Position numbers and translations under genes: made by a program. The notes under the pieces are model-generated. The model was not told the DNA's origin. It did not search any database and saw only the letters and a list, made by a program, of their open reading frames with translations. From Elusimicrobiota bacterium (GTDB lineage: Bacteria; Elusimicrobiota; Elusimicrobia; F11): DNA of 64,000 nucleotides. Position 1 is the stretch's first letter. Every line of letters begins with the position of its first letter. Where the stretch lies: positions 64,001-128,000 of the forward strand of contig JBGAON010000001.1 in NCBI GenBank assembly GCA_044221725.1, read 5' to 3'. This document shows, one piece after another, positions 12,402 through 61,257 of the stretch.

Positions 12402-13250
12402 TTGTATTGGGAAGGGGAGGGAACCACAGTTTTAAATCCTGAATCTTTGCGGTTTGAAATACCGGTGCCCTATAAAGGTCGCGTTCCGTTTGGGGAAAAG
12501 AAAATTGGATTCGAGCGTGAAAAAGTTGAACTGGAGCAGGTGATCATCAAGCGGATCCAAATCAACCCCTTGCGAGTCGAACTCCCCGATTGTTACGGTA
12601 ATCAAAACTCTGGACTAAAAACACAGGCGACCCGTTTTGAATACCGTAAAGATCGCCTGCCCGGCTCCAACGGTGTTAGAAAACAGGCTGGACTAAATGG
12701 TACCTCCGTTTTCTATGACCGTCAAACAACTCTCCGCGGGTCCAACGGTCTTAGAAAACATTCTACGCAAATAAACCCACTTTTCGAAGTCGAAACAGTT
12801 ATAGGCGACCTATTTATGTGGGACGATTCGGTTTTTGGGTGGGCCAACGGAGCAAAAGGGATGCGCCTGATCCTGACTCCAGCAGCGGCCAAAGCTATCC
12901 GGAGCCAGCAGCGGAGATGGCAAGAGCCGAAACCACCCCCGATCCAAATCATGCTTAAACAGGCCCGCCAGCTAAAAATCCGGCTGGAGCAGGACCCTGA
13001 CCTCACCCGTGCCGCGCTGGCCAATGAGGTCGGCATGAACCCGTCTTATCTGACGCGAATCCTCAACCTCCTTAACCTGGCCCCGGAAATCCATAGCTAC
13101 ATTCTCTCGCTCCCACCCAGCCAAACAAAAGGGCCCATTACAGAAAGCCGGATAAAACATTTGGCCCGAATTTCCAACCACGAAGATCAACACCGCGAAT
13201 TCAATCTACTAAAGAATGCGGCCACCAGACGTCCGGTTGTAACGATGTAA
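12402..13250 (+). pseudogene. Mosaic mobile-element remnant; C-terminal part is an HTH protein of the type found beside serine recombinases
   Basis: C-terminal TRAALANEVGMNPSYLTRILNLLNLAPEI HTH; N-terminal part is repeat-containing and has a weak TTG start. The real gene may start near 12817. Confidence 0.45.
12591..12780. repeat. Degenerate ~75-bp tandem repeat
   Basis: TCCAACGGT(G/C)TTAGAAAACA at 12666-12685 and 12741-12760 (19/20 identical); CTGGACTAAA and CCGTTTT also recur at similar spacing. Confidence 0.7.
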
Positions 13251-13538
13251 TTTTTTACCAATCCAGCTAAACCCAGTGTTCGCTTGAAGCGCCGAACGAC
13301 CCCGGGAGAATAAAAAGTAACAATTATCCAACTCACATTCGTTTACATTTCTCAAACCGATTCGAGTCCAGAAAGACCTTGAACCTTCTCGAAGTCGCTG
13401 TACGGTCCCAGTCCTGACGACACGATGGTGCCGAATCAAGGAGGTGGGACCGATGAGCGATTGTTATGCGATTCGCAAAGCATTCCGCAAATGGTGGGCA
13501 AGCAACTACATAGAACTCTTGGATTCCGTGGTGATGTT

Positions 13539-14237
13539 TTATCTGGGGATTGTGATTTTATTGGCTGTTTGCGCCGTTGTCGAAATTTTCAGAGGATAAA
13601 CTTTCCACAGCATCTGGATATCTTCCGGATCCACACCTCGTGGGCACCGGCCGCGGATGTATGCTGGCTTGAGCCTAAAACCATTTTCTTTGATTACCGA
13701 TCCATTCAGAATTTTTTTGATGCTTTCATGGCACAGAATCGCCGATTCGCGGTCAATCTCCAACAACCGCGCCGCCAAATTGACCGCGTATCCCAAATAA
13801 TCTGTTTGAGTGGCCGCTTGGCCCGGCCGGCTGGCGACCATTTTCCACACATGGCCGGCGGCGATACGAATCCGGAACGGCCCCGGCGCTGGGAACGCTT
13901 TTTTTGAAATGCCACGAATGCCCACATCCAACTCCACCGCATGTCGCAGAAATTCGGACACTTGGCGTTTGGCACTTCCCTTGCCGATTTCCGTGACACA
14001 CATGAATCCATCGCCCATCAACTTCACAAAGTATCCGTTGCCGTTTCTGAACCGGATAAATTCGTGATAAATTTCAACCATAAACGTCTTGAATTCCTCC
14101 GGGGAATTACTCCCTCGACGAGTCCAGGCTCCGAAATCAGTGATGTCGCCAAACGCGACCAAAACTTTTACCCGTTCTGCTTTTATCTTTGGAGCCCGTT
14201 GCAGAAACTCCAAATCGAGTGGCCTCCGCCCTCTCAT
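13539..14237 (-). CDS. Stand-alone class III adenylate/guanylate cyclase domain protein
   Basis: FGDITDF, VKLMGDGFM, RIRIAAG and DYLGYAVNLAARL motifs; GGAGG SD. Confidence 0.85.
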   Translation of the reverse strand: MRGRRPLDLEFLQRAPKIKAERVKVLVAFGDITDFGAWTRRGSNSPEEFKTFMVEIYHEFIRFRNGNGYFVKLMGDGFMCVTEIGKGSAKRQVSEFLRHAVELDVGIRGISKKAFPAPGPFRIRIAAGHVWKMVASRPGQAATQTDYLGYAVNLAARLLEIDRESAILCHESIKKILNGSVIKENGFRLKPAYIRGRCPRGVDPEDIQMLWKVYPLKISTTAQTANKITIPR

Positions 14238-14254
14238 TTTTACCTCCAGGAAAT

Positions 14255-14312
14255 AAAAAAAGGCGTCGCCTCTGATAAAAAAGAAGCAACGCCTTGACTC
14301 GACTCAACAGCG
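14255..14312 (-). promoter_or_regulatory. Leader attenuator-like element: small hairpin plus intrinsic terminator, copy 1
   Basis: CGCTG-TTGA-GTCGAG-TCAA-GGCGTTGCTTCT...AGAGGCGACGCC-T7, lying between a TATAAT (14334-14339) and the cyclase SD. Confidence 0.75.
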
Positions 14313-14385
14313 ATGTTTTTCCCTTACATCACCATTATAAAAAAGATCCGATCATAAATTCATTTCTCCGTCTCATTGTCAGAGA

Positions 14386-21163: not shown

Positions 21164-21274
21164 AACACGACGCAACGACCATCGCGATGAGGCAAGATCT
21201 CTCTATGGGAACCGCAACGCCTTGGTTTGCCCAACAGCTTACCGATAATTTTAATCGAAATTATTATGATGCAT

Positions 21275-27117: not shown

Positions 27118-27691
27118 GAGAGTCCTCATCCAAATTAAGATTCAACTTCAGAACATTCACGCGGGGCTCGCCAAGAAGCCCTAGGAAACGGCCTTGGGTG
27201 TTTTTCTGAATCAATGACTCGACAACCGCCTCAGGAAGTCCACGAACGCGTGCAATTCGCTTTAACTGATATTGGGCAGTGGCTGGTGTGATATGAGGAT
27301 CCAACCCGCTGGCCGACGCCGTGATCAGGTCGACCGGAATCTTTTCTCTATTTTCCGGGTCATTCTTTCGCAACGCATCAATGCGGTCCTGTACGGATTT
27401 AATAAGCGCGGGATTAAGCGGGCCCAAGTTCGACCCTGACGACGCAGCTCCATTGTAAGGAACCGGTCCCGTCGCCGACAGCCGTCCCCAAAAATACTTG
27501 GGATCATCAAAGGATTGGCCAATGAGTTCTGAACCGACTGCTTTCCCGTCTTTCAAAATAAGACTTCCATTCGCCTCATGCGGGAAAAGTGCTTGCGCCA
27601 GCCCCGTCACAGCAAACGGATACACGACTCCAGTGAGAACCGAAAGAACGACGAGTGTGCGAACAGAAATTATGAGTTGTTCAATATACAT
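27101..27691 (-). CDS. kdpC: K+-transporting ATPase subunit C
   Basis: [36 protein letters not shown]. Confidence 0.96.
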
Positions 27692-27717
27692 CTAAGCCTC
27701 CTTGCCCTGAACAGGGC

Positions 27718-29787
27718 TTATGCCAAACCCATCGCGACAAGCAATAGATCAATCGCCTTGATGCCGATAAAAGGCGCAATCAATCCGCCGATGCCATAAA
27801 TCAGAATATGGTCACGAAGCAAACGGCTTGCGCCCAATGCCCGATACTTCACTCCTTGCAGAGATAACGGGATGAGCAGAACAATGATGATCGCATTAAA
27901 TATCACAGCGGAGAGAATGGCGCTCGTCGGCGTAGCAAGGTGCATAATGTTGAGTGCGCCAAGAGCGGGGTAAATCCCAACAAATGCCGCAGGGATGATC
28001 GCAAAATACTTTGAGACATCATTGGAGATGCTGAATGTCGTCAAAGCGCCACGCGTGATCAAGAGCTGTTTGCCAATTTCCACGATTTCGATGAGCTTCG
28101 TCGGATTGGAATCGAGGTCAACCAGATTTCCCGCTTCTTTGGCTGCTTGCGTTCCGGTATTCATCGCGACCGCAACATCGGCTTGAGCGAGGGCCGGCGC
28201 GTCGTTGGTTCCATCTCCTGTCATGGCGACCAGGCGGCCACCGCTTTGCGTGTCGCGAATCAATTTCAATTTTGTTTCCGGTGTGGCCTGAGCCAGAAAA
28301 TCGTCGACTCCGGCTTCCGCCGCGATGGCGGCGGCGGTTAAAGGGTTATCGCCAGTAATCATGATGGTCTTGATCCCCATACGGCGAAGTTCCACAAAGC
28401 GTTCCTTGATTCCTCCCTTGACGATGTCTTTCAAGTGAATCACGCCAAGAACTTTGTCGCGATCCGCCACAAGGAGAGGCGTTCCACCCGACTTCGCAAT
28501 CGTTTCTACTGCCACTTTTACACTGGCGGGATAGTCACCGCCTTGTTCCTTCACATATGCCTCAACGGCATCCGCCGCTCCTTTGCGAATGTGGCGACCG
28601 TCGCTTAGGTCCACACCGCTCATGCGCGTCTGCGCGGTGAATGGAATAAAATTTGCTCCTATTTCATGAACCTGCCGCTCCCGAATGCCGTATTTCTCCT
28701 TTGCGAGGACAACAATGCTCCGTCCCTCCGGCGTTTCATCGGATAAAGAGGAAATCTGGGCGGCGTCCGCCAATATTTCTGGCGCTATTCCATCGGAAGC
28801 GACGAACGCCACCGCTTGCCGATTTCCAAGGGTAATGGTGCCGGTCTTGTCCAAGAGAAGAACATCAACGTCTCCAGCCGCCTCGACGGCGCGTCCCGAC
28901 ATCGCGATCACATTGGCCTGAATCATCCGGTCCATTCCCGCAATGCCGATGGCCGGGAGCAACCCTCCAATTGTCGTTGGAATCAGGCAAACCAAGAGCG
29001 CCACAAGCACGGTCACAGTCACAGGCGATCCTGTTCCAGCCGCGCTGACGCTATAAATCGAAAAAGGAAGCAACGTGACGGTCGCAAAAAGAAAAATGAT
29101 CGTCATGCCAGCCAAGAGAATGTTGAGAGCGATCTCGTTTGGAGTTTTTTGACGTTTCGCTCCCTCCACCATATTGATCATCCGGTCAAGAAACGTCTCT
29201 CCTGGATTGGATGTAATCTTTACGACCAGCCAATCAGAGAGAACTTGTGTTCCTCCCGTGACTGCGCTCCGGTCACCACCCGCTTCCCGGATGACTGGCG
29301 CGGACTCGCCAGTAATGGCCGCTTCATTGACTGAAGCCACCCCTTCAATAATCTCTCCGTCCATCGGGATGATATCGCCGGCTTCAACCAGAACAACGTC
29401 TCCAGCTCGCAATGTGGAGGCCGACACAACGACCGGTTTATTTGATCCTCTTTTGCCGTTCAGTAATTTTTTCGCAGGTGTGTCTTGGCGCGCTTTCCTA
29501 AGGTTTGCGGCCTGCGCTTTTCCTCTTCCTTCCGCCATCGCCTCCGCAAAATTCGCAAATAGAACCGTGAACCATAGCCATAAGGAGATAGACAAAATAA
29601 ATCCCGCAGGCGCCTCACCGCTTCCGGTTAACGCTTGAACAAACAATCCCGTGGTCAGCATGCTTCCAACCCAGACGACGAACATCACAGGATTCTTTAT
29701 TTGATGTTTTGGATTCAGTTTCCTGAGAGATTCCAGAAAAGCCGGTCCGACGACAGATGAATCAAAAAGCTTGTGTGTTTTTCTCAT
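27718..29787 (-). CDS. kdpB: K+-transporting P-type ATPase subunit B
   Basis: [27 protein letters not shown] 29787 overlaps the kdpA stop (ATGA). Confidence 0.97.
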
Positions 29788-31517
29788 GATAAATACTCCA
29801 CGATCGGCCCCAGAGCGAGAGCCGGAAAAAAGGTTAGGGCTCCCACAATGAGAATCACCGAAGCCAGAAAGAAAACAAAAAGCGGCGTATGAGTCGGCAA
29901 TGTCCCGGAGCTTGGCGGCACAACTTTTTTCTTGGCCAGCGACCCTGCCATCGCCAACACAGGAATGGCGATCCAATAGCGCGAAAAAAACATCGCGAGT
30001 CCCAGCCATAGGTTATAGAAAGGCGTGTTGGCTCCGAGTCCAGCAAAAGCGCTTCCGTTGTTATTACCCGCCGAAGAAAAAGCATAAAGCACTTCGCTAA
30101 ATCCATGCGCTCCGGGATTAAAAATCGTGGCCTTGCCCGCTGGTGAAACGACCGCAATTGCGGTTCCTCCAAGGACGAGAAGACACGGCACCAAAATACC
30201 AATGGATGCCATCTTCATTTCATAGGCTTCGATTTTCTTGCCCAAATACTCCGGCGTGCGGCCGACCATGAGCCCGGCGATAAAAACCGCAATGACCGCA
30301 AATAGAAGCATCCCGTAAAGTCCTGATCCGACACCTCCGAAGACAACTTCTCCGAGCTGCATCAAGATCATTGGAACGAGTCCACCCAACGGCGTATAGG
30401 AATCGTGCATGGAATTCACGGAGCCATTGGAAGCGGCGGTTGTTGCCGTCGCCCAAATCGCCGAACTTACGATCCCATAGCGGACTTCCTTGCCTTCCAT
30501 GTTTCCGCCCGACTGGAGCGCCGATGCAGCCTGATCGACATCTAATTTGGCAAGCAGAGGATTTCCAGATTGTTCCTGAGCAACACAGAGCCATAACGCC
30601 GGCACAAAGAGGACCAGCATGACTGCCTCAAGAGCCCACCCTTGTCGAGTGTCCTTGACCATAACGCCGAACGTGTAGCACAGCGCTGCAGCGATCAATA
30701 GGATCGAAAGCGACTGGAGGAAATTTGAAAGCGGTGTGGGATTCTCAAATGGATGGGCCGAATTGACATTGAAGTAACCACCCCCATTGGTTCCCAGTTG
30801 CTTAATAGCGATTTGGGAAGCGGCCGGCCCTACAGCCAACGTCTGTTCGCTGATTGGTTTTCCATTGCTATCCATAAAAGGTTGAAGAAGCGCGACTGTT
30901 TGACTGGGCCGAAATGTCTGCACCACGCCCTGCGAAACCAATCCCATCGCTAGTAAAAGTGACATGGGCATCAGGATGTAGATTGTGCTTCGAACCATGT
31001 CCACCCAGAAATTTCCGATGACCTTCGCTTCACGCCGGACGAATCCACGAATCAAAGCAACCAGAACCGCCATACCGCTGGCCGCTGAAACAAAGTTCTG
31101 CACAGTCAAACCCAGCATTTGTGTGAGATAGCTCATGGTTGTTTCGCCGCCGTATCCTTGCCAGTTGGTGTTCGTGGCAAAACTCACAGCTGTATTGAAG
31201 GCGGAATCCGGCGTTACAGGACCCATGGCCATCGGGTTCAAAGGCAAATGCTGCTGAACCCGTTGAAGCAAATAGACAATTAAAAGTCCTGCAAAGTTGA
31301 AGATCATCATTGCGAAGGCATAGGTTTTCCAATTCATCTCTTCTCTGCGAACACCTGATAACCGGTAAATAAGTCGTTCGATGGGACCAAGAATCTTATC
31401 GATCCACATTGGCTGGCCTTCGTAAACCTTGGCCATGTAAAGCCCAACAGGCTTGACCAGTAGAATCAGAACGCCAAGATAAACGGCGCACTGAATCAAA
31501 TTATTTGAGTTCGTCAG
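29784..31517 (-). CDS. kdpA: K+-transporting ATPase subunit A (start uncertain: CTG 31517 or TTG 31499)
   Basis: [29 protein letters not shown] and NNNGSAFAG selectivity-filter motifs. Confidence 0.95.
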
Positions 31518-31603
31518 AAGACCTCCGGCTTAAGCAACGCCACGAAAAGGTAAATCAGAATTAGAAATGACGTGACAGCCCCGATCCAATAAATAAGAGT
31601 CAT
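31514..31603 (-). CDS. kdpF: KdpF peptide (29 aa)
   Basis: Hand translation [29 protein letters not shown], matching the YL..ALLxPExF pattern; AAGGAG SD. Below the ORF-track cutoff. Confidence 0.92.
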   Translation of the reverse strand: MTLIYWIGAVTSFLILIYLFVALLKPEVF

Positions 31604-31616
31604 AGAAATAATCTCC

Positions 31617-31697
31617 TTAAATCTTTTCGAAGAGCAATATGAGCCCCACGGACAAAACGCCCAACCCAAGAATAAGGCTAATGTAAACGATGTCCAT
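31617..31697 (-). CDS. Second small hydrophobic kdp-associated peptide (26 aa)
   Basis: MDIVYISLILGLGVLSVGLILLFEKI* with AAGGAG SD, immediately upstream of kdpF. Confidence 0.7.
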   Translation of the reverse strand: MDIVYISLILGLGVLSVGLILLFEKI

Positions 31698-31980
31698 CTT
31701 GATTCTCCTTTTCGGGTGAGATTCGCTCTTCGGTTTCCTTCTTCTCGACTAAGTGTTTTAACCGTTCCTCATCTCGTTCTAAATTGCTCAAAACGCGAGC
31801 CAAGCGGTCCGCATTCGCTTCAAGTTTCTGCATAACCTGATCAACTCGTGGAGAGAGTTGGTGTTCTTGCGTTCGAGGCTCCTCTTTTTCGATCAGTGTC
31901 GATGGAGGCCAAACCGCAAAAACTGTTCGCGCAACTGTGAAGGTTCCCACGATGAATAGAAACGAAATAATTCTTTTCAT
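31678..31980 (-). CDS. Hypothetical exported coiled-coil protein at the head of the kdp operon
   Basis: Signal peptide MKRIISFLFIV...VFA, charged helical body. Confidence 0.55.
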   Translation of the reverse strand: MKRIISFLFIVGTFTVARTVFAVWPPSTLIEKEEPRTQEHQLSPRVDQVMQKLEANADRLARVLSNLERDEERLKHLVEKKETEERISPEKENQDGHRLH

Positions 31981-32025
31981 GAGTACAAGATAACTCAGCT
32001 CCCCGTTTAGGAGCCATTGTCACGC

Positions 32026-32044
32026 CGTTAAGATTTCGTTAAGA
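32026..32044 (-). promoter_or_regulatory. Candidate KdpE binding site
   Basis: Perfect direct repeat TCTTAACG x2 (32026-32033, 32037-32044), 11-bp period, upstream of the kdp operon; OmpR-family geometry. Confidence 0.6.
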
Positions 32045-32073
32045 CGAGGAGGGTGCTGGGCGGGAAAAAACAA

Positions 32074-32778
32074 TTAATCTTCTGGGGCTTCCAGACGATA
32101 ACCGACACCAGGCTCCGTTTTCAGGCATTTGGGCCTAACAGGGTCGGGTTCGATTTTCTGGCGTAGCTGGTGGACAAATATCCGCGCGGTTTCTGGCGTG
32201 GCGGTAGCATCGTTTCCCCATACTTCTTTAATCAACATTTTTTGGCTTACCACGCGACCTGCATTACGGACAAGGACTGAAAGAACGTCATATTGCTTCG
32301 GCGAAAGATGAGTTTCCTTTTTTCTAACCCACACTTTTCTGGCCACCAAATCGACCTTCAGCCCTTCACGTTCATACACTGGCGGTGAATCGTTTGGGCC
32401 TCTGTCAATATGACGAACGGCCACGCGAAGTCTCGCCATGAGTTCGCCCACACTGAAAGGCTTGGTCAAATAATCATCGGCACCAGCGTCTAAACCGGCA
32501 ATTTTGTCGTTCTCTTTCCCTCGAGCCGAAATGATAATGACGGGAGCCGAAGTCCATTGGCGCAACGATTTCAAGACGACCAGCCCATCTTGATCTGGTA
32601 ATCCAAGATCAAGCAGGATGACATGAGGTTTTTTTGAAGCGGCAGATTCAAGACCCATACGGCCCGTCGTCGCCTCAATAATGTTCCAACCTGTTTTCTC
32701 CAACGACGTGCGTAAGAACTGAAGGATCGCGGGTTCATCTTCAATTATGAGAAGTGTTCGTTCAGTGTCCATTTTCAC
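32074..32778 (-). CDS. kdpE: KdpE response regulator (OmpR family)
   Basis: IIEDE, LLDLGLPD, GADDYLTKPF, LRQKIEPDPVRP, TEPGVGYRL. Confidence 0.93.
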   Translation of the reverse strand: MKMDTERTLLIIEDEPAILQFLRTSLEKTGWNIIEATTGRMGLESAASKKPHVILLDLGLPDQDGLVVLKSLRQWTSAPVIIISARGKENDKIAGLDAGADDYLTKPFSVGELMARLRVAVRHIDRGPNDSPPVYEREGLKVDLVARKVWVRKKETHLSPKQYDVLSVLVRNAGRVVSQKMLIKEVWGNDATATPETARIFVHQLRQKIEPDPVRPKCLKTEPGVGYRLEAPED

Positions 32779-34246
32779 TCATAGGAAGTGTGAAACGGAA
32801 CATGGCCCCGCCTCCCATCCTATTCTCCGCCCATATTTTTCCGCCGTGCGCCGACACGATGGCCCGGCAAATCGCCAATCCCAAACCCGCACCGGAAGAG
32901 GAGCGCGCATGGAAAAATTTCTCAAACACACGTTCGACATCAGATTCATTTAATCCAGATCCCCGATCAGCGACAGTTACGCTTACCATTCCCTGCTGCA
33001 GCGTGGCGCCTATATCAATCGCGCTTTTGACAGGAGTATGGCGAATGGCGTTCTCCAACAAATTAATAAATACCTGCTCGATCAACATTCCATCGAGCGG
33101 CACGGCAGGCAAATCCTGAGGTAGTTTTACATCAACCTTTCGATCTTGGAGAGATTTCTCGAGCCGGCCTAACGCGCTTCCGACAATCTCTTCCAACGGA
33201 TAAAGCTCCTTTTTTATTTGCACGGCTCCCGATTCAAGGCGGGTTGCCTCCAACAGATTCTGCACCAACTTTGAAAGGCGCTCTGCTTCCGATTGAATTG
33301 TTTCCAATAGTTCCAAACCCTTGGGGCCTTTCCGCATCTCTTCGTTTCCTATGAGGGTGCTGGCCGACCCCACTATTGCTGTCAGCGGGGTCCGAAGATC
33401 ATGTGAGACTGAACTTAAGAGAGAACTCCGAAGCCGCTCTGTTTCCACTTCGACCTCGACTTTTTTAGCGTTCTCCTGCAATTTGTCGACTTCCAAGGCG
33501 AGCGCGATCTGATGGGCAAAAGAATCGAGCAATAGCCTTTGCTCTTTTACCATCGTTTGATCTTTTACACGCGGACTGATGCTCATGACTCCAACCGAAC
33601 CTTCCGCTCCCACGAGCGGAACATACAAGGAATTTTCTGATGGGACGGATTGAGTGCCCAATCCTGCGGGTTGCTCTTGGTCATAAGCCCATTGAGCGAT
33701 GCCAATCTCTTTTTCCGTTGGGATATTTTTACCCGAGTCTGCATTTGCCACCAAACGATCATTCGAGTTTGGAAGGAATATAACGACATCAGAATTAAAT
33801 ACTTCTGAGATTTGACGAACCGCCATACTCAAAACATCCTCCAATCCTCGCGCTTTGGCAAGCTGTTGAGTGAACGCATGCATCAAAGTCATTCTCGACT
33901 GACCTTGCCGGGCGGCTTCCGCCTCTGATCTCAGGCGAATTGTTAAATGACTAATCACCATCGCGGCGATAAACATGACGATAAAAGTCCAGATATATTG
34001 GGCATCCGATACCGCAAACGAAAAACGCGGCGGAACGAAGAAAAAATCGAAGCAAAGAACACCAAGTGTGGCGCAAAGGGCTGATGGTCCCCGCCCACCT
34101 CTCGTCGCGACGACAAGTGTTCCCAATAAATAAATCATGACGAGGTTGGTAAGTTCGAAAAACGGAAACATCGCGAATGAGACAGCCGTGCATAAGCCCA
34201 CCACGACAATTGAAAAGAGGAATTGATTACGAAGAACTTTATTCAC
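32762..34246 (-). CDS. kdpD: KdpD kinase half (4TM, GAF, HisKA, HATPase) lacking the N-terminal KdpD/Usp domains
   Basis: [15 protein letters not shown] motif, SVSHDLRTPL H-box, NLLENA, DRGSG, GAGLGLAI. Confidence 0.9.
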   Translation of the reverse strand: MNKVLRNQFLFSIVVVGLCTAVSFAMFPFFELTNLVMIYLLGTLVVATRGGRGPSALCATLGVLCFDFFFVPPRFSFAVSDAQYIWTFIVMFIAAMVISHLTIRLRSEAEAARQGQSRMTLMHAFTQQLAKARGLEDVLSMAVRQISEVFNSDVVIFLPNSNDRLVANADSGKNIPTEKEIGIAQWAYDQEQPAGLGTQSVPSENSLYVPLVGAEGSVGVMSISPRVKDQTMVKEQRLLLDSFAHQIALALEVDKLQENAKKVEVEVETERLRSSLLSSVSHDLRTPLTAIVGSASTLIGNEEMRKGPKGLELLETIQSEAERLSKLVQNLLEATRLESGAVQIKKELYPLEEIVGSALGRLEKSLQDRKVDVKLPQDLPAVPLDGMLIEQVFINLLENAIRHTPVKSAIDIGATLQQGMVSVTVADRGSGLNESDVERVFEKFFHARSSSGAGLGLAICRAIVSAHGGKIWAENRMGGGAMFRFTLPMSENGH

Positions 34247-34544
34247 GATAAATTCATTTTACTTGTTACCCCTATAAAGAGCATCTGAAACGTCCTCCTT
34301 TTGTGTTGGTTTCGTCGCTTGAAGAAGGTAGTCCTTCCCCGATCAAACAATCCATAAATTGATTCGCCAAATTTCGAGGAGTCGGAATCGATTTGAGTTA
34401 TTGGGCTAGTTTGACGACAAAAGCCCTTGATTGATTCGCGAACTCGCTGTACTTGGGTCCGGACAAAGCGGAAAAATAACCCAAACGGGGCAACGGGTTA
34501 CACGAACGGCGCAACGTGGGCGAGATTAGGAGGCATTTAAGGGT

Positions 34545-34781
34545 ATGCAGAACACCATCAAATTCAAAGTGGACGACTGGGTAGAAATTGTTGAGGCGCT
34601 CGGATCAAAGATCGGCATGATTGAATCCGGCCAGCTCGGGCCGGAGGATCAGCGCGGGCAAGACAAGGAATGGATCGCGCATTTACGCCGGATCATCCGA
34701 AAAATCGAAGGCCCAAAATGCGAAGGCGTGAACTTCGCCGTTTTCAAGAAAACAGTCACAACAAAAAAAGGAGGACGCTAA
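34545..34781 (+). CDS. Hypothetical phage protein
   Basis: AGGAGG SD; first of a tightly coupled run ending in the recombinase. Confidence 0.6.
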   Translation: MQNTIKFKVDDWVEIVEALGSKIGMIESGQLGPEDQRGQDKEWIAHLRRIIRKIEGPKCEGVNFAVFKKTVTTKKGGR

Positions 34782-34782
34782 C

Positions 34783-35256
34783 ATGAACGCCATCGACGCA
34801 AAAGTAGGTCAGAAGTACCTGTCAAAAAAAGGAACACCTGTCACGGTAGTCGGCCACAAGGGCGACAAAGTAACCCTAAAAATCAGCGGATCCGAAAATG
34901 AAATCGACGTCGTTAAAAACTACGAGTTGAAGCCCTATCGGGACGCGGAGGTCAACAAGGAGGCAAAGATTCTTATCCGCGCCAGTGGTGGCGGTCAGGG
35001 CAAAGGCGGTCGAAAGCCGAGCAAAGAATCGCTCTCCGCTACCATTGACCCCATGCTCTTCGCGGGCGGAAAGACCGTAAAGGAAATTGCGGAACTCGCG
35101 ATTAAAAACGCGCCCGATCTCGTGAAAGGAAAAGATGTCGAGGCCAACGTGCGCGCCCGCATGGTTTCTTTTTCCCGCAAAGGGTGGAAGATCGAGAAGG
35201 ACGATACGAAACACGTATGCGTTATCAAGCCGAAGGAGGTTGCCCATGCGAATTAA
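34783..35256 (+). CDS. Hypothetical basic protein, possible C-terminal winged HTH
   Basis: AGGAGG SD; GGKTVKEIAE...VRARMVSFSRKGW. Confidence 0.65.
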   Translation: MNAIDAKVGQKYLSKKGTPVTVVGHKGDKVTLKISGSENEIDVVKNYELKPYRDAEVNKEAKILIRASGGGQGKGGRKPSKESLSATIDPMLFAGGKTVKEIAELAIKNAPDLVKGKDVEANVRARMVSFSRKGWKIEKDDTKHVCVIKPKEVAHAN

Positions 35257-36523: not shown

Positions 36524-37627
36524 ATGACGGTGAATCAAGTGGAAGAAAAAACACAGTTGGATTCTAGTTTAGTCCAATTGGCCCGGTTGGCGCTCAGTGG
36601 ACGGCGGCAAGATATTGAACTTTTTATCCGCCGACTCATCCATAACAATGGATTGTCCGTCGATGCCTCAAAAAAGCTGACGCGGCTTCTTCAAGACTCG
36701 CCTACCAAGAACTCTCCGCTTCGCAACGAGACGTTTCCCGCTCTTCCCGTGGATATGGATTCGCGGCTTCAACTCTTACGACAGGAATATCCTGCGGTGA
36801 TCGATCAAGAGCCGATTTGGGCTCCCAGTGTACGGAGCAACCTAGAACAGATCATTCAGGAACGCGAGCAAGAATCGAATTTGATCCGGGCCGGCATTCA
36901 GCCCAGCCGGTCTTTGCTTTTTACAGGAGAGCCGGGCGTTGGAAAATCTTTAGCGGCCCGCTGGCTCGCCAACAAACTCCAACTTCCTCTGTTGATTCTT
37001 GATTTGTCCGCTGTCATGAGCAGTTTTTTGGGGCGCACTGGGGCCAACGTGCGGAACGTGATCGACTACGCCAAGGGGAGCCGTGCAATTCTTCTCCTGG
37101 ATGAATTCGATGCGATTGCGAAACGGCGCGACGACGCCGTAGAGGTGGGCGAGTTAAAACGCCTTGTGACGGTTCTTCTCCAAGAGATAGATGACTGGCC
37201 ATCAACCGGAATTCTCATCGCGGCCACCAATCATTCCAACCTACTTGATCCCGCTGTCTGGCGGCGGTTTGATCTTCTCGTCGAGTTTCCCATGCCAACG
37301 GAAGAACAAGTAGGCGAAAAAATAAAGAATGTTTTTGGCGCTGACTCTGAATTGTCCCAGGAGTGGATTGATATTTTGCGCCTGCTTTTGGCGGGATCGT
37401 CATTCGCGGAAATAGAACGAGAGTTGCTCACCATTCGCCGTCGAGCAATTATTAGTCAATCGTCGCATCAAGACCTGATCACGGAATTTGTTAAAAGCAA
37501 AACACAACAACTCAGGAATAAGACCCGTGTTAATATCGCCCAACGCCTGATCGAGTTGGGCTACTCTCAAAGACGAGCTCATGAATGGACAGGCGTAAGC
37601 CGAGACACAATAAGAAAGACGATCTAG
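36524..37627 (+). CDS. ietA: AAA+ ATPase, IetA-like
   Basis: GEPGVGKS Walker A, LLLDEFD Walker B, AATNH, LDPAVWRRFD; C-terminal HTH; paired with an S8 peptidase. Confidence 0.85.
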   Translation: MTVNQVEEKTQLDSSLVQLARLALSGRRQDIELFIRRLIHNNGLSVDASKKLTRLLQDSPTKNSPLRNETFPALPVDMDSRLQLLRQEYPAVIDQEPIWAPSVRSNLEQIIQEREQESNLIRAGIQPSRSLLFTGEPGVGKSLAARWLANKLQLPLLILDLSAVMSSFLGRTGANVRNVIDYAKGSRAILLLDEFDAIAKRRDDAVEVGELKRLVTVLLQEIDDWPSTGILIAATNHSNLLDPAVWRRFDLLVEFPMPTEEQVGEKIKNVFGADSELSQEWIDILRLLLAGSSFAEIERELLTIRRRAIISQSSHQDLITEFVKSKTQQLRNKTRVNIAQRLIELGYSQRRAHEWTGVSRDTIRKTI

Positions 37628-39876
37628 CTTCAGCCCAATCTCCGGCTACCCGGGCCAATTACATCCTGGCTCATGGGGAACGGCTTACCAAACCGGTCAG
37701 TATTCCTCGCGGCGCTGGTGAGAAAGTTCATCCCTATTCCTTCGCCGAGGCCAAAGACCGCCTTCGCCCTCAGATAAAAAAAGTCGTCGAAACCGTTTTC
37801 GCTCTGCCAGCGGACACCTGCCCCAACGATGAAACCGTCATCGGTCTCACGCTTCATCCTTCTTACCTGGCCAAGTCTTATTTCCCAGTCAATCTTCTTC
37901 GCGCCTTAAACTTGCGAGTAGTAGGAAGTCAACGGAAGATGATTTCTCCTGAGAAAACGGTGGGCAAAAAAACGTCAGGAGAAGTTCCGACCGTTGAGTT
38001 ATTTGTGGCAGGACAGCGAAGTGCCATTCAGCGGTTAGCGGAACGGCAAGACAAATGGAATCCTCGATCCACGGAAGCTCAAGACCTGATCCGGATCGAG
38101 AGGATTCAACCCATCAAGCCGGAAGACAAATTTGTTCCTTTTGATTCCAAGGAGGAAGTACCGCTCCTTGAAATTGTTCTCCACGCTTCCAAGAACGCTG
38201 AATCGCGTTACATTGTGGAAGGTTTTTTCAAATTTCTCTCCGGCCTGGGGATCGAGGCCAAGTATTCTGAAAAGAAGCTTTTCGTTGGCGGCTTGTGCTT
38301 TATTCCGCTTCGAGCGCCTCAATCATTGATTCCAAAAATCATCTCCTATTCCTTCTTACGAGTTCTCCGAAAGATGCCGTCTCTGCGGAGCTTCCTTCCG
38401 TTGCTTCGCATGGCCACGAAGACCGAGCCTTTCCCTTTTGATTCTCCTGAGGGAGGCCCTATAAATCCGGATATCCACACAGTTGTTATGGACGGAGGAA
38501 TACCCAGCAATGCAAATCTGAGTCGTTGGGTTCACTACGAAAAGGCTCCTGGCGTAACCGAGGAGGATGAGGATGGACTCAAGCACGGCCTTACCGTCAC
38601 CTCGGCCGTGCTCTTTGGTCCGCTTCAGAAGGACGCTCCGGTTTCCTTTCCGTTCTCACGATTGGATCATTACTGCGTTCTCGGAAAAAACGACCAGGGA
38701 GATTTCATTTACGATGTTCTCGCTCGCGTGATTTCCGTCCTTGAATCCAAGCGGTATGAATTCGCCAACCTAAGCCTCGGACCACGTCTTCCTATCGAAG
38801 ACAACCATGTCGATCCGTGGACATCGGTGATTGACCAAGTGCTCTCGGATGGGAAAATTTTCTTGACAGTGGCCGTTGGCAACGATGGAGACAAAGACAG
38901 GCCCTCCGGCAACGCCCGCATTCAGATCCCTGCGGATTGTGTGAATGCCGTTTCGGTCGGCGCCGCCGATTCATTGTCGAGAATATGGCGGCGGGCTCCT
39001 TATAGTTCCATTGGGCCTGGACGAACACCTGGTTACTTCAAGCCGGATGTGGTTGCGTTTGGGGGGGCGGACGCGGAACCTTTTTGGGTCATCGATCCGC
39101 AGAATCCAGCGTCGACATTTCCAGCGGGAGGGACCAGCTACTCGTCGCCCGCCGCTTTGCGTATCGCTTTGGGCTTAAGATCTCAATACGGGGGCGACCT
39201 TAAACCGCTCGTACTTAAAGCCTTGCTTGTCCATCACAGCGACTCGCTCGGTCACGATAAGATCGAGGTTGGATGGGGAAGGATTCCGGCTTCACTCGAT
39301 GCTTATATGAAGTGTCCCCCGGGCACGATAAAAATTCTCTATCAAGGTGAACTCCCACCCAAAAAATATCTCCGGATCCCCGTGCCGCTGCCGAAGGAAA
39401 CCCTGAAAGGCAATGTGACAATCAAAGCCACTCTGTGTTACGCCACCGAAACCGATCCAGAGCATCCCTTCCATTACAGCCGGAGCGGTCTTGAAGTTAC
39501 TTTCCGGCCGCATTCAAAAGTTCGGTCCCGTCCGGAGCAAGAACAACCAAAAACCACGTCTTTTTTTAGGCCGGACGATCAATACATGACAGAAAGCGCG
39601 TTACGCCGGAGCGCTTTCAAATGGGAATCCACCTTGCATGGGCAGAAGAGAATGAGAGGAGCGAGTCTTGACGATCCCGTGTTCGATGTCCATTACATGG
39701 CGAGAACGGGGGGCAGGCCAGCGAAAGACCCCAAACCAATCGCGTATGCTTTCGTTTTAACGGTCGAAGCGCCCAATCACCCTGACCTCTATGACAACGT
39801 TGTCGTCAGGTATCGAACCCAACTGGAAGCGCTGCGACCTGTGGTTGAGATTCCCATCCAATCTCAGGGAATGTGA
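37585..39876 (+). CDS. ietS: Subtilisin-like S8 serine peptidase, IetS-like
   Basis: Catalytic triad motifs VMDGG, HGLTVTS and GTSYSSP; AVGNDG oxyanion; KPDVVAFGG; no signal peptide. Confidence 0.85.
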   Translation: MDRRKPRHNKKDDLASAQSPATRANYILAHGERLTKPVSIPRGAGEKVHPYSFAEAKDRLRPQIKKVVETVFALPADTCPNDETVIGLTLHPSYLAKSYFPVNLLRALNLRVVGSQRKMISPEKTVGKKTSGEVPTVELFVAGQRSAIQRLAERQDKWNPRSTEAQDLIRIERIQPIKPEDKFVPFDSKEEVPLLEIVLHASKNAESRYIVEGFFKFLSGLGIEAKYSEKKLFVGGLCFIPLRAPQSLIPKIISYSFLRVLRKMPSLRSFLPLLRMATKTEPFPFDSPEGGPINPDIHTVVMDGGIPSNANLSRWVHYEKAPGVTEEDEDGLKHGLTVTSAVLFGPLQKDAPVSFPFSRLDHYCVLGKNDQGDFIYDVLARVISVLESKRYEFANLSLGPRLPIEDNHVDPWTSVIDQVLSDGKIFLTVAVGNDGDKDRPSGNARIQIPADCVNAVSVGAADSLSRIWRRAPYSSIGPGRTPGYFKPDVVAFGGADAEPFWVIDPQNPASTFPAGGTSYSSPAALRIALGLRSQYGGDLKPLVLKALLVHHSDSLGHDKIEVGWGRIPASLDAYMKCPPGTIKILYQGELPPKKYLRIPVPLPKETLKGNVTIKATLCYATETDPEHPFHYSRSGLEVTFRPHSKVRSRPEQEQPKTTSFFRPDDQYMTESALRRSAFKWESTLHGQKRMRGASLDDPVFDVHYMARTGGRPAKDPKPIAYAFVLTVEAPNHPDLYDNVVVRYRTQLEALRPVVEIPIQSQGM

Positions 39877-57134: not shown

Positions 57135-58037
57135 TTACAGGGTGACGCCGGCCAAACGGGAAACCTTGATGTCGTTGCCCAGAACCAGCGTCAAGTCTTC
57201 GAACACGTCGAACTCACTGTACTGGGATGATTTCTGCGCAAGCCGAACCATCTTGAGCGGGGTCAGTTCGCCCACCCATACCGCGCTCGTGTCCAACACA
57301 AAAATGTCGGAGCAAACGTTGGACGTGCCTTGGGTCTGCGTGTCCGAAACGAAAATACTTCGGAAGATCGGAATCCCGTTGTAAACCTGAACCCGGAATC
57401 CGCCATTCACTTCCATCGTGTCCACGAATCGCTGTTGGGCCTGCAGAAGACCGTTCAATTTTCGGTTCGCTTTCTTCGACATGATCAGCATGCCAGGATT
57501 GCCGCGATTCAAATCAATCGCCGAATCCAACAGATCAAGCGTGAGAGGAGCGCCGTTGGCACCGGCCACAAGCACCTGTCCAGCGGGCGTGAGTTTCCTC
57601 AACCCGTCGAACTGCTTCGGGTTCACAGCCGAGTCACCGTTGATGAGTGCGTTCTCTTCCGTGTCACGAACCACTTGAAGCGCGCTTTCGATTTCCTCAG
57701 CTTCGATGTCGAGCAGAGTTTTTCCGACCGCCTGCAACTTCCGCGTCGCCTTACCCCGCTGAATGATTGTCTTGTAGGTGAACTTTTTCTGCAGGTAGGT
57801 GGACTGCGTGTCTGTCGGCTCTTCCGTGTCGTCCACAAAGCCGCCCGTGCCGCGCGCTGTCCGTTGGTTTAAGATCCAATCGGATCCAGACCCAGGTTTT
57901 CTCGGCAGGTTCTGCCGGAGTGGGTTGTTGACCTCGATCAATTCCTGAAGCACCCGGTCAACCAACGGCTGTTGCAGGGTGTTTCCGGCGTTCGCGATGT
58001 TCAGCGCTTTTTTCAACTGCTCTAAATCATTTGTCAT
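57135..58037 (-). CDS. Major capsid protein (HK97 fold)
   Basis: Follows the protease; EENALINGD...FDGL, YNGIPI; AAGGAGG SD. Confidence 0.88.
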   Translation of the reverse strand: MTNDLEQLKKALNIANAGNTLQQPLVDRVLQELIEVNNPLRQNLPRKPGSGSDWILNQRTARGTGGFVDDTEEPTDTQSTYLQKKFTYKTIIQRGKATRKLQAVGKTLLDIEAEEIESALQVVRDTEENALINGDSAVNPKQFDGLRKLTPAGQVLVAGANGAPLTLDLLDSAIDLNRGNPGMLIMSKKANRKLNGLLQAQQRFVDTMEVNGGFRVQVYNGIPIFRSIFVSDTQTQGTSNVCSDIFVLDTSAVWVGELTPLKMVRLAQKSSQYSEFDVFEDLTLVLGNDIKVSRLAGVTL

Positions 58038-58051
58038 GACGTGTGCCCTCC

Positions 58052-59167
58052 TTAGGCTTGCTGAAGGGCGAGCGCCACTTTCAGCTTCTTCTGGGGCGGC
58101 AAACCCTCAAATGTTTTTTTGAGCTCATCGCCTTGCGGCTCCTGATCAACCAATCCCTTTCGAATGGCCGGGATCTGTTTGAGCATCGGCTCAATTTGTT
58201 TCTTCACTTCGCTGGAAATCATCTCCGCCATCTCTTCTTTGCTGACGGATTTCGGAACTGCGGCCGAGGCGGGCGGCGTCCACTGTTCACCGATCGCTTG
58301 TTTCAGCATGGCCTTGATCTGGATCGCGGTTGGTCCGATCTCGCCGCCCATCGCAATCAAGCGGTCAAGCATCATCCACACAGGTTCAAGCGAGAGGCCT
58401 CCGGCCGAAGGGCCGTTGGCTTTTTTCGTTTCCTTTTCTTTTTTTGGTTTGCTGTCCTTCCCTGCAACTTTTTCGGGCGGCTGATCCTGCGGAGCGGGGG
58501 TTTCTTGGGGCTGGGGTTCCGGTTTGGGATCCGCTGGTTTTTCTTCTGGGACTGGAGCATCAGCGGGTTTTTCGTCGTCCGGCTTGATCTCCTCAATAAT
58601 GGTTTCTTCTTGAGACATGGTGTCTCCTCCTTGGGTCGATGACCCGTTCTGGGAATCGATTTCATCGAGCGCTTTCTGGACGTACCATCCAATGGCGCGG
58701 GCTTCGGGATTGGCAGGCACGGACACAAGCGACACTTCCACGAGCGCCATGCGCTTGATGACGTTCACCACTCGGTCCAAGTCCGGCATGTATTTCTTCT
58801 CACGCTCCAGCACCTGGCCTCGAATGGAAAATTTGTTGAGAACGCCCTCTTTGATTTTCTGAATGATTTCGGGTTCGGTTTGGGAAATGAGGACATCGAT
58901 AAGGAGGCCGTTTTTGTCGAACTCGGCTTTGGTCACTTTGCCGATGGGAATCTTGATGTCGTGGTTTAAGAGGACGGTGGAATTTTTGACGAGGTCGAGC
59001 TGGGAGGCCCGCAGAGCATCTTCGGAGATGATGTCGCCCTGCAGGTCAAAATCCGAGGTGGCGGCGTACCCGACAATATGGAACTCGCCTTCGGTTTCCG
59101 CTTGTTTGGTGATCTCCAGCGGAAAATCGAATGAGATTTTCTCCAGTGTTGCCGTTTCCTGTTCCAT
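58052..59167 (-). CDS. HK97-family prohead protease with C-terminal scaffold
   Basis: VGYAAT...DLQGDII, LLNHD, FSIRG, EVSLVSVPANPEA. Start at ATG 59167 behind GGAGG. Confidence 0.92.
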   Translation of the reverse strand: MEQETATLEKISFDFPLEITKQAETEGEFHIVGYAATSDFDLQGDIISEDALRASQLDLVKNSTVLLNHDIKIPIGKVTKAEFDKNGLLIDVLISQTEPEIIQKIKEGVLNKFSIRGQVLEREKKYMPDLDRVVNVIKRMALVEVSLVSVPANPEARAIGWYVQKALDEIDSQNGSSTQGGDTMSQEETIIEEIKPDDEKPADAPVPEEKPADPKPEPQPQETPAPQDQPPEKVAGKDSKPKKEKETKKANGPSAGGLSLEPVWMMLDRLIAMGGEIGPTAIQIKAMLKQAIGEQWTPPASAAVPKSVSKEEMAEMISSEVKKQIEPMLKQIPAIRKGLVDQEPQGDELKKTFEGLPPQKKLKVALALQQA

Positions 59168-59195
59168 GATCCTCCGGGCTTCCGCCCACACACAT

Positions 59196-59267
59196 AAAAA
59201 AAGGCGCTGTCATCTGAAGGTCCCGAAAGACCCACAGACAACAGCGCCTCGACTCAGCTCGACAGCG
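59196..59267 (-). promoter_or_regulatory. Small hairpin plus intrinsic terminator, copy 2
   Basis: CGCTG-TCGA-GCTGAG-TCGA-GGCGCTGTTGTCTG...CAGATGACAGCGCC-T7; 14-bp stem capped by a TTCG hairpin. Confidence 0.8.
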
Positions 59268-59274
59268 CGCTACG

Positions 59275-59469
59275 TTATGCTTCGATCAATTTTTTCACGC
59301 CTTCTTCCACCAGCGTCTCATGCCGTTTGATGCGGATGATGTGTCCATTTTCAAAATGCGTTTCCACAACTCCGAAGAACTTTTCGTCCTTGAGCTTCCT
59401 GCAGAACGCCTGATAAACCGCATCCGTGACTGCCGATTTCGCATCCATGCCATTATTCTGGATCATCAA
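59275..59469 (-). CDS. Small DUF2292/YezD-like protein
   Basis: KFFGVVETHFENGHIIRIKRHET fits the 'FG.V.I....G.V..I.R.E' pattern; start may be the Met of MDAKS. Confidence 0.6.
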   Translation of the reverse strand: MMIQNNGMDAKSAVTDAVYQAFCRKLKDEKFFGVVETHFENGHIIRIKRHETLVEEGVKKLIEA

Positions 59470-59541
59470 TCTATGATTCGTCCATCAACTTTCATTGTGT
59501 TTATTTTTCTGACGAGGAGGGGAGATAGCTCATCGAAATAA

Positions 59542-61257
59542 TTATGAAGACATCTTCTCGACGTAGGTTTCTGACTCCTTGACCGGATAATTTGACACCA
59601 GCAACTCAAATTTATTCCGGTGTCCCAATTGATTCGCGCCCGTCCAAAGGGTTTTCACGCGGTAGGTTTTGAATCCTTTGAATAGGTTCTTTTTCTCCAG
59701 CTCGTAACTCAACAAAAACCGGCCTTTGATGGATTTGAGAACCGGTAACATATCCTCTTCCTTGAAAAACTTTGATCCGACTCCGCCCGTTTCTTTCGGC
59801 CAGTGAAGAGGATACGGCGGATCGAGATAGAAAAAGGCGTCCTTGGAATCGAATTCCTTTATCACGTCTTTCCAATCTTTGTTTATGAGTTTCACGCCGC
59901 GAAGCCGTTCTTTAATTTGCGGAAGCCGCTTCACCAGTTGGATCTCGTATCCCTCGCCTTTCTCTCCGGTTCGCATGCCTTCTATCCGGTCGGTGCGGCC
60001 CCAGTAATTGGCTTTGTTCAGGTAAGCGATCCGGTAAAACCGCTCGCGTGGGGACGATGGCTCGCGGTCGAACACTTTTTTAACGTGGGTACGGGAGATT
60101 GTCCAATACTGCTTCTCCAGCCATTTCTGATCCTCTTCATCCATATGCTTGATGAAGCGATACGCGAAAATGAGATCCGGGTTCACGTCGTTTAAGATTT
60201 CTTCGTTCGACCGTTTCTTATGGAAGAATACCTGGGCACCGCCACAAAAGCCTTCCACGAATGTCTTGTGTTCGGGAATCATGGGGACGAGTTTCTTGCA
60301 GAGGCGAAACTTTCCCCCAGGGCTTTTGAACGCACCTTGAATTTTCTCAACGCCATCATGCCCCTCCAAATGCGGAAAAAGAAGCGGGACGCCTTCTTCC
60401 ATACCTTCTGGTTTGGCGTCCAACTCCTTGTCGATGTAGAGGTGCTTTTTCTCGAGCGGATGTTTTGAAACAAGAAGCTCCGTCACCCACTCCTGATTGC
60501 CACCGGGCCCGCGCATTTGGTTGCGGCGCTTCACGCGATAAACGTTCATCCCTTTGAACGCGTTGGCTCGGTCACCGGTGTAGGACACGATCCAATCACC
60601 TCGAAGGGTTTTCAATTTCTTGATGAACTTCTGTTCTTCAAAACCGAAATCAAAAAGATTGAATGTGCCCGGGTACGGCGGGTCGATGTAGAAGAACGTG
60701 TCCTCCCCGTCATATTTCTTAAGCACCTCGGAATAATCCTTGTTGTGAACAACAACGTTTTTAATCCGCTGTTGGGAGCGGGTGATGTTGTTCTCGAAAT
60801 CAATGATCACGCCTGCGTTGGCCGGATTAAAGGAACCGCCCCGCATCTTCCCGTAGGAGGAGCGTGTCAAATAATAGGCCTTGTAGAACCGGTCCATCTC
60901 GGTGACCGGCTTCATCTTTTTCAACCGCTCGTGCGTTTCTTTGTTGATTTCCCAGTTCCGTTTGGCGAGAGCGGCGCGATCTTCCTTCGTGTGGTCGCGG
61001 ATAAACCGGTACATGAAGGCGATTTCGGAGTCGCGGTCGTTGATGATTTCTTGCGGTGACGGATCTTTGGCGAAAAGAACCGCCGCACCACCAGCAAACG
61101 GTTCAACGTAAGTTTTGTGATAAGGAATGTATGCGGCGATCTTGTGCGCGAGTGCACGCTTGCCGCCGTAGGAGCCGAAGGCTTGCCGAACTCCTTTTTC
61201 TAAATCTGATTCTCCGCTCACCGGCTGATCAGCCGGTGAAATTTCTGTTGGTTCCAT
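59542..61257 (-). CDS. Tandem two-domain Dam-like (D12 class) N6-adenine DNA methyltransferase
   Basis: Two full motif sets: YGGK/EPFAGG/IND/YIDPPY/ELLVS and PGGK/EGFCGG/LND/YLDPPY/ELLVSN. Confidence 0.92.
   Translation of the reverse strand: MEPTEISPADQPVSGESDLEKGVRQAFGSYGGKRALAHKIAAYIPYHKTYVEPFAGGAAVLFAKDPSPQEIINDRDSEIAFMYRFIRDHTKEDRAALAKRNWEINKETHERLKKMKPVTEMDRFYKAYYLTRSSYGKMRGGSFNPANAGVIIDFENNITRSQQRIKNVVVHNKDYSEVLKKYDGEDTFFYIDPPYPGTFNLFDFGFEEQKFIKKLKTLRGDWIVSYTGDRANAFKGMNVYRVKRRNQMRGPGGNQEWVTELLVSKHPLEKKHLYIDKELDAKPEGMEEGVPLLFPHLEGHDGVEKIQGAFKSPGGKFRLCKKLVPMIPEHKTFVEGFCGGAQVFFHKKRSNEEILNDVNPDLIFAYRFIKHMDEEDQKWLEKQYWTISRTHVKKVFDREPSSPRERFYRIAYLNKANYWGRTDRIEGMRTGEKGEGYEIQLVKRLPQIKERLRGVKLINKDWKDVIKEFDSKDAFFYLDPPYPLHWPKETGGVGSKFFKEEDMLPVLKSIKGRFLLSYELEKKNLFKGFKTYRVKTLWTGANQLGHRNKFELLVSNYPVKESETYVEKMSS

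Follow-up and report, generated by a model that had tools for sequence, protein, structure and literature searches.

A real, conserved and apparently undescribed protein-RNA antitermination module was identified in a prophage of an Elusimicrobiota bacterium, within the window, that is, the whole 64,000-nt stretch of DNA that was analysed. On the minus strand, its parts follow each other in the order promoter, leaderless 57-aa ORF, 25-nt internal-loop hairpin, terminator, prohead protease gene and capsid gene (Table 1). We consider it likely that the module works by protein-dependent antitermination, which would be autoregulated and probably act in trans, in a LicT/RAT-like operation with unrelated parts. 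Antitermination or attenuation had been put forward in an earlier note on this DNA. Computational refutation checks did not refute this interpretation, which we regard as supported, the mechanism itself being what we infer. That note had missed the dedicated promoter and its leaderless start. It had also overlooked the lower stem, from which the switch arises, and the membership of the second copy in a conserved ORF-less class before a cyclase gene.

Table 1. Features of the putative switch and of its further copies in the window.
Feature	Position	Strand	Evidence or remark
Upstream box and -35 hexamer TGGACG (59484-59479), small-gene promoter	59479..59494	-	conserved at 17 homologous genes; putative function
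-10 hexamer CAGAAT	59455..59460	-	18 nt past -35, 6 nt ahead of ATG; leaderless start
57-aa DUF2292/YezD/OscA-like protein, candidate antiterminator	59275..59448	-	profile, HHalign, AlphaFold2, dimer model
Candidate antiterminator hairpin	59244..59268	-	lower stem 59268-65/59247-44, internal loop, upper stem 59261-59/59252-50, 6-nt loop
Intrinsic terminator, T7 at 59202-59196	59196..59250	-	predicted fold; 5' arm overlaps hairpin 3' end by 5-7 nt
GGAGG (59175-59171) and prohead protease/scaffold gene (ATG 59167), first putatively gated gene	58052..59175	-	PF04586, E 2.9e-12
Major capsid protein gene	57135..58037	-	PF05065, E 2.9e-10; PF17236, E 1.6e-9
TATAAT, putative -10 box of ORF-less copy	14334..14339	-	read from sequence
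Second hairpin (14313-14289) and overlapping terminator, no small gene upstream	14255..14313	-	folding, profile A1
GGAGG and stand-alone 232-aa class III nucleotide cyclase gene	13539..14247	-	PF00211, E 5.2e-10; adenylate cyclase 5o5k, E 5e-5
Relic hairpin: upper stem retained, terminator 3' arm gone	21209..21245	-	RNA model R1, 19 bits, E 2.43; no terminator fold

Prophage setting and promoter

According to a Pfam search, the gene order of the prophage late region is terminase, portal, Dam methylase, small ORF, prohead protease and capsid. The Dam methylase, which carries two MethyltransfD12 stretches (window 59542-61257, minus strand), lies between the portal gene and the small-gene promoter. 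An IetA/IetS defence pair is present between the integrase and the lysis/tail end of the prophage (window 36524-39876, plus strand; PADLOC, E 1e-84 and 7.5e-43), and a complete-looking kdp potassium-uptake cluster with split sensor genes, noted by eye, forms cargo between the prophage end and the cyclase gene (window 24673-34246, minus strand). A recombinase-like gene, recognised by eye, followed by tRNA-Gln (G000:C3:140733-142421) is likely the right prophage end. The search for an attachment repeat that would place the copy at 14.3 kb within the prophage gave only 14-16-bp repeats, none of them convincing and none matching on the left.

The same upstream box and -35 as in the window are found ahead of the homologous genes counted in Table 1, in the arrangement upstream box, -35 TGGAC(A/G/T), 17-18-nt spacer and -10, and the ATG is located 6-7 nt past the -10 in 14 of the 17 gene-preceding matches. 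An ATG 6-7 nt behind the -10 is the geometry of a leaderless mRNA, and no Shine-Dalgarno sequence is visible upstream of the small-ORF ATG. Based on the -10-to-ATG geometry, the start is therefore placed at 59448. The ORF had been given as about 57-64 aa; the 57-aa form is the most likely one, while the 64-aa extension overlies the -10 box and is to be read as promoter DNA. The strict promoter pattern has a single match in this genome, and the primase-linked homologues (L004, L016, L019, L031) have a different upstream sequence.

The upstream box was also considered as a host regulon site (e.g., SOS), and loose palindrome patterns gave 10-20 scattered matches in the genome with no clear pattern. 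Two assembled RNA contigs (X1), both from a single study, with no strand or level and with no DNA contig that continues there, were not counted: one stops at 59446, 2 nt into the ORF as counted from its predicted start, and the other (58892-59264) spans the terminator.

The hairpin and its competition with the terminator

Two 26-mers (59267-59242 and 14312-14287, minus strand), about 45 kb apart, differ at five positions, all of them transitions, just as the earlier note had described, and 0.00 such matches are expected (100 shuffles). The combined motif pattern occurs only at these two places, both in the window (up to 3 mismatches) and in the 2.82-Mb genome (up to 5 mismatches). The recurrence is thus real, but two is not the total, and the genome has five full copies and one relic.

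The fold was derived from alignment A4, which comprises 30 hairpin copies from phage-head, primase, cyclase and curated DUF2292 loci. In it, a 3x2 internal loop separates a lower stem of 4 bp from an upper stem of 3 bp, which is capped by a loop of 5-6 nt. A 4-bp stem with a 6-nt loop had been claimed before; the hairpin holds, its extent had to be redrawn, and the outer U-A pair of the claimed stem was discarded, with 0 compensatory changes, 10 of 30 cells unpaired and an A that is nearly invariant. A further inner pair fails as well, with 22 unpaired cells. Over the 9 candidate pairs, 84.4% of the cells are paired, 45 cells changed on both sides compared with 13.2 after shuffling (0/500), and the covariation score is 0.499 compared with 0.199 shuffled (0/500) and at most 0.173 slid, where the sequences of A4 are related, so that the shuffle counts are not probabilities and the slid control is the safer one. 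The two-sided changes number 6, 8 and 14 for the upper pairs and 7, 5, 2 and 0 for the lower pairs, the last of which has 6 U-G. Among 23 mostly phage-class copies, there are 15 two-sided cells, and the upper stem alone covaries.

Then, could the palindrome act as DNA, as an operator for a dimeric protein, or be a passive terminator flank that was co-duplicated? TCGA/TCGA and TTGA/TCAA are palindromic, and the protein is a predicted dimer. However, the half-sites vary in sequence, with at least five pair types, and yet retain their pairing, U-G stands for C-G in 6 of 30 copies, the spacing differs by 1 nt, and the slid controls collapse. Such a role or origin of the palindrome is extremely unlikely.

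As had been reported, both motif copies run into terminators with a T7 tract, which are followed by GGAGG and ATG. The predicted terminator fold has -36.9 kcal/mol at the copy behind the small gene (z -8.64, 0/200 shuffles) and -22.3 kcal/mol at the second copy (z -7.20), and the hairpin behind the small gene by itself has -11.0 kcal/mol. The 3' strand of the lower stem is at the same time the 5' arm of the terminator. Forcing the hairpin costs 10.4 kcal/mol in the copy behind the small gene and 8.0, 11.2, 8.7 and 8.7 kcal/mol in the other full copies of the genome. The terminator fold is the more stable one in 5/5 full copies, and therefore the predicted default is off. In two DUF2292 loci, L162 and L164, it is the terminator 3' arm that is complementary to the hairpin 5' strand instead; consequently, exclusivity is kept while the geometry changes.

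Since the terminators overlap the hairpin, stabilisation of the hairpin must disfavour the terminator. This bears on the idea that the protein binds the hairpin with some other outcome, such as RNA protection, altered translation or favoured termination, for which one could cite the several DUF2292 loci (L165-L170, L192-L197) that have the hairpin just before a Shine-Dalgarno sequence and no visible terminator. However, every terminator that is present overlaps the hairpin, and we hold another outcome to be very unlikely.

Rfam 15 gave 0 matches at the gathering score in the window, and the bacterial cis-regulatory families of Rfam gave none over the hairpin at E<=10 (20 loci).

The small protein

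The earlier note had called the ORF DUF2292/YezD-like. The homology is borne out at the profile level; a direct match is not, and PF10055 gives none for the window ORF at E<=1. On NF033785, the OscA model, the window ORF scores 12.7 bits with a cut-off of 85. Profile A1, built for the window protein and run over lengths of 31-139 aa, collects 55 proteins at E<=0.001, with source names among the close homologues that point to Elusimicrobiota, and PF10055 is matched by 26 of 52 aligned relatives at E<=0.5 (best 21.9 bits). A phmmer search against 1.84 billion representatives returned 9 matches, one of which is a false MORN-repeat protein, and one true relative among them scores 21.9 bits on PF10055, where the cut-off is 22. 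In an HHalign comparison with eight DUF2292 proteins that pass the curated cut-off, P is 87.1% and E 3.9e-6 over 43 columns. In addition, genes of G130 and G286 match A1, as well as PF10055 above its cut-off, and have the phage-type hairpin. By these comparisons, the window protein is a distant relative of DUF2292/YezD/OscA, through a link that is indirect but consistent. The ESM Atlas (top score 0.83, DUF2292 cluster 0.79) provides leads only, and PHROGs gave nothing under E 0.03 for the window ORF. A tblastn search of P0011 against GenBank phages gave 44 weak matches (E>=2), none of them useful.

AlphaFold2 predicts, with a pLDDT of 90.4, a helix at 9-21, strands at 26-33 and 36-44, and a helix at 48-56. 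The protein is predicted to be a homodimer that is formed via the first strand, with a model score of 0.42 against 0.00 for the best of 3 controls; for comparison, 20 of 30 solved pairs and 1 of 23 single chains attain this mark. The dimer runs have 100% contact agreement and a pLDDT of at least 76. Among 48,161 chains none reaches Z>=5 (best Z 2.9), and Foldseek gives no match at E<=0.001 for the model of the window protein; it should be noted that an absent match does not mean a different fold. Basic residues occupy positions 36, 39, 41 and 42 in 73-96% of 52 sequences, and the protein is not basic overall, with a net charge of 0 for the window protein and a family median of 0. The CAT domain (PF03123) gives no match to the window ORF at E<=1 or to the 52 family members at E<=0.5, and the Pfam family of HutP matches neither the window ORF nor the family members.

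Linkage of gene and hairpin

Profile A1 has 34 places in 22 of the 401 genomes of the phylum. For the best 22 protein-first matches (E<=3e-11), the hairpin and a terminator are present downstream in 22/22, which, together with the 26 of 32 rows given below, confirms the enrichment beside small-gene homologues for which the earlier note had proposed a check. By reading, they are present in 27 of the 34 places; the 7 misses are four genes directly abutted by another gene, one truncated gene (L024) and two likely false places (L027, L028). With a fixed descriptor, the full hairpin is located 4-17 nt past the stop in 26 of 32 distinct gene rows (23 of 29 found protein-first), and any such hairpin within 220 nt occurs in 4-23% of shuffles. 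Most loci come from related Elusimicrobiota elements and are therefore not independent. This genome also encodes a homologue with 24% identity, picked up through the protein alone, behind which a covaried hairpin copy lies ahead of a primase gene. The genes that would be gated include prohead proteases (next gene in 5/5 sampled head-type loci), primase, porins and a TonB receptor, and four have no Pfam match.

In curated-type DUF2292 rows the hairpin pattern is found in 10 of 22, at 0-120 nt from the stop and in unrelated sulfur/porin loci; the other 12 of these 22 sulfur-type rows have no full pattern, several of them without a clear hairpin or terminator. The sulfur context is seen solely in curated members such as L162, the neighbours in the window being Dam methylase, prohead protease and capsid. 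A second short conserved element with CGGATAA lies between the DUF2292 stop and the main hairpin in L163, L164 and L168-L170. In the homologues L025, L026, L032 and L038 the next gene follows directly and there is no hairpin; by eye, this next gene resembles a helix-turn-helix excisionase. Of these homologues, at least L032 is extended in its N-terminal part.

The closeness of stop and hairpin raises the question of ribosome-coupled attenuation, in which the choice of structure would depend on the short leaderless ORF being translated or on a cis effect of its nascent peptide. The small-ORF stop codon in the window is 6 nt from the hairpin (the 7 nt given earlier as the gap to the motif are correct), and it counts against the antitermination reading that a terminating ribosome could also affect folding. 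The 4-17-nt distance in 26 of 32 rows and the conserved leaderless start are in favour of attenuation as well. However, the whole structure is retained in the ORF-less copies, a distance of 30-120 nt separates stop and hairpin in sulfur-type loci, and, unlike leader peptides, the protein is conserved in fold and predicted to dimerise. Attenuation by the ribosome is, on balance, quite unlikely.

The linkage was also followed from the side of the RNA. RNA model R1 was run on 80 chosen genomes, 20 of which had served for its training, and matched 19 of the 80; 5 of the 20 training genomes were missed. Among the 19 are 16/16 same-class genomes with a phage-class protein match (13 training; 3/3 untrained) and 2/2 genomes with L173/L174-type genes (training). 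R1 matched 0/3 of the other A1 genomes, 0/44 genomes without the small gene, picked by number, and 0/9 sulfur-type genomes, the model being insensitive to sulfur-type hairpins. The 1/6 matched among hand-picked genomes without the gene is G392 (85% complete), where a hairpin was found without a gene. Applied to 32 held-out loci, R1 recovered 6 copies of the phage class (E<=1.3e-4), whereas nearly all copies of the sulfur type escaped it (1 weak match among 18). A new match in G182 has a diverged small-gene homologue (11.7 bits), and the hairpin matched in G298 sits behind an ORF-deleted relic.

At L216 (G298:C60:113740-113900), the promoter and gate are retained and an internal deletion has reduced the small ORF to 8 codons, and at L218 (G298) the promoter and a truncated ORF remain and the gate is absent. 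Two R1 matches were dropped, namely C5:504091 (E 0.045), which is inside a coding region with no terminator, and C4:63457.

In viral contigs, the exact 22-nt pattern has 0 matches. A looser pattern has at least 120 matches, and among those listed 4 are real, all 4 with the small gene upstream, and 116 are coding look-alikes without a terminator. Since nearly all matches listed were coding look-alikes, short patterns alone are useless.

Gates without the small gene

The copy at 14.3 kb, with its TATAAT 21 nt upstream, precedes the class III cyclase gene, and profile A1 found no small gene there. The cyclase has 11 matches in 5 of the 401 genomes, and 9 of the 11 have the hairpin, terminator and Shine-Dalgarno sequence directly upstream, one of them as a shortened variant; the 2 most distant cyclases are without a gate. 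With A1, no small gene was found at the gated cyclase places, and by eye similar -10 boxes stand upstream of most other cyclase copies. The match of the cyclase to PycC, the cyclase of Pycsar, is weak (E 6.6e-5), its neighbours vary with no common effector-sized gene by eye, and the GAF-PAS gene upstream of the cyclase has no match in PADLOC.

In G282, two gated cyclases are located where prophages end, and next to them are small end-genes of the kind that also flanks the prophage of the window, and one G282 prophage has a second gene-less gate ahead of a tail gene. For four linked pairs, the loop length of the cyclase gate equals that of the element gate on the same contig, and in one pair, at 66 kb and 23 kb of G282:C2, the cyclase gate and the element gate have an identical stem-loop core. 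The matching loop length and core fit either element-specific recognition or local duplication.

Contig 2 of this genome has a paralogous cassette and a relic near a primase-bearing element. A second mobile element there, L040/L041 (G000:C2:304700-327700), contains integrases, an HTH regulator, a 58-aa homologue with its own gate, primase and terminase-like genes, and a 933-bp section shows 83% identity to window 34306-35236. The relic at 21209-21245 (minus strand) is located behind a PepSY-like membrane gene and has the same upper stem-loop as the cyclase gates of contig 2. A 51-aa hydrophobic ORF (window 13444-13599, plus strand) is convergent with the cyclase gene and overlaps its 3' end, and a similar sequence is beside the cyclase of contig 2. 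Just past the cyclase gene, a recombinase/ParB-HTH remnant (window 12200-13250, plus strand), with a similar one after the L207 cyclase, may mark the left end of the element.

Copies without a small gene, kept before cyclases (9 of 11) and before a tail gene, are what could be cited for a hairpin that is a real antiterminator with a different ligand, be it a host RNA-binding or Nus-type protein or a metabolite, while the small protein, with its net charge of 0, does something else. This explanation is unlikely: R1 has 0/44 matches in genomes without the small gene, the hairpin accompanies one and the same protein family in loci for phage heads, primase and sulfur, for which a common metabolite is not obvious, and it is only 25 nt long.

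Proposed mechanism

In the antitermination reading, the promoter at 59494-59455 would give a leaderless mRNA for the 57-aa protein, and by default transcription would halt at the terminator just past the small gene, leaving the head genes off. As the protein accumulates, its dimer would bind the internal-loop hairpin in the nascent RNA and keep the lower stem closed. The closed lower stem would sequester the terminator 5' arm, and RNA polymerase would continue into the protease, capsid and tail genes. Such a layout may provide a threshold or a delay from promoter firing to virion synthesis. The protein would be diffusible and therefore should open ORF-less copies too, e.g., the gate before the cyclase gene. 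Against the antitermination reading are the net charge of 0, the lack of a fold match to a known RNA binder, the hairpin-less homologues and the G392 hairpin without a gene.

More tentatively, the module may be a portable late-gene switch with element-specific protein/hairpin pairs, which, once a prophage or an incoming relative produces the protein, also turns on the cyclase in trans and so couples virion synthesis to a cyclic-nucleotide signal, and the same module might explain YezD/OscA in sulfur regulons; we think this wider picture possible and, as a whole, rather doubtful. The conserved gate before the cyclase suggests a signalling output linked to phage late expression. If the proposal is right, a 57-aa protein together with a 25-nt RNA could set the time of head synthesis in temperate phages, and with its naturally varied hairpin loops the switch could serve as a compact synthetic regulator.

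Comparison with known systems

The closest likeness in operation is to BglG/SacY/LicT and their RAT hairpins. In the accessible text of PMC5393181, the RAT hairpin is 29-33 nt long, has two internal loops and shares 6-10 nt with the terminator, and the LicT dimer stabilises it. Common to both systems, as far as the accessible text of the sources goes, are a short hairpin in which the internal-loop bases are conserved while the apical loop varies (PMC5393181; PMC12591593), a hairpin 3' end that doubles as the terminator 5' arm, exclusive folds of which the terminator is the default winner, a dimeric binder (here a predicted dimer with putative binding) and several targets per protein (here putative). 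In contrast to RAT, the hairpin described here has 25 nt, one internal loop and a 5-7-nt overlap; the protein is a stand-alone one of 57 aa with no CAT match and no PRD domains, and the targets are phage head, replication and cyclase genes.

HutP of Bacillus subtilis, following the accessible text of PMC12591593, is a hexamer activated by histidine and Mg that binds NAG triplets in the hutP-hutH terminator, and its operon has the same order of promoter, regulator gene, intercistronic terminator and regulated genes. Unlike HutP, the system described here has a competing hairpin that covaries, and its protein is unrelated in sequence and a predicted dimer. With no CAT or HutP domain and one internal loop, the window system is therefore a member of neither LicT/RAT nor HutP.

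With DUF2292/YezD/OscA (PF10055, NF033785), the window protein shares its size, the conserved G..strand..G..strand core and the same hairpin shape downstream, but it is under both cut-offs, has an extra C-terminal helix and occurs in a prophage. In the accessible parts of the respective papers, oscA is co-transcribed with a sulfate-binding protein gene (PMC3596284), yezD is 'unknown' and dispensable in starvation (PMC6385201), and members of the DUF2292 family appear as table entries (PMC7953295, PMC7921472). The literature on DUF2292/YezD/OscA and antitermination, a scope outside which most subscription papers lay, contains passing mentions only, with no mechanism found. The family is absent from the main texts and readable supplements of the RNA-motif surveys, where the supplements of PMC5737381 and PMC11109978 may name the motif differently.

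Phages also have antitermination of another kind. The lambda proteins N, with nut, and Q pass terminators by processive modification of RNA polymerase, with host Nus factors or at a promoter site. Like these, the phage-encoded protein proposed here would let transcription reach later genes; unlike them, every terminator comes with a competing hairpin of its own, and in one relative a second gate precedes a tail gene. The widespread DUF2292/YezD/OscA small proteins, which are without a mechanism in the literature searched, would thereby gain a testable function, and the module would add a class of RNA-binding antiterminators that is unrelated in sequence to CAT, ANTAR or HutP.
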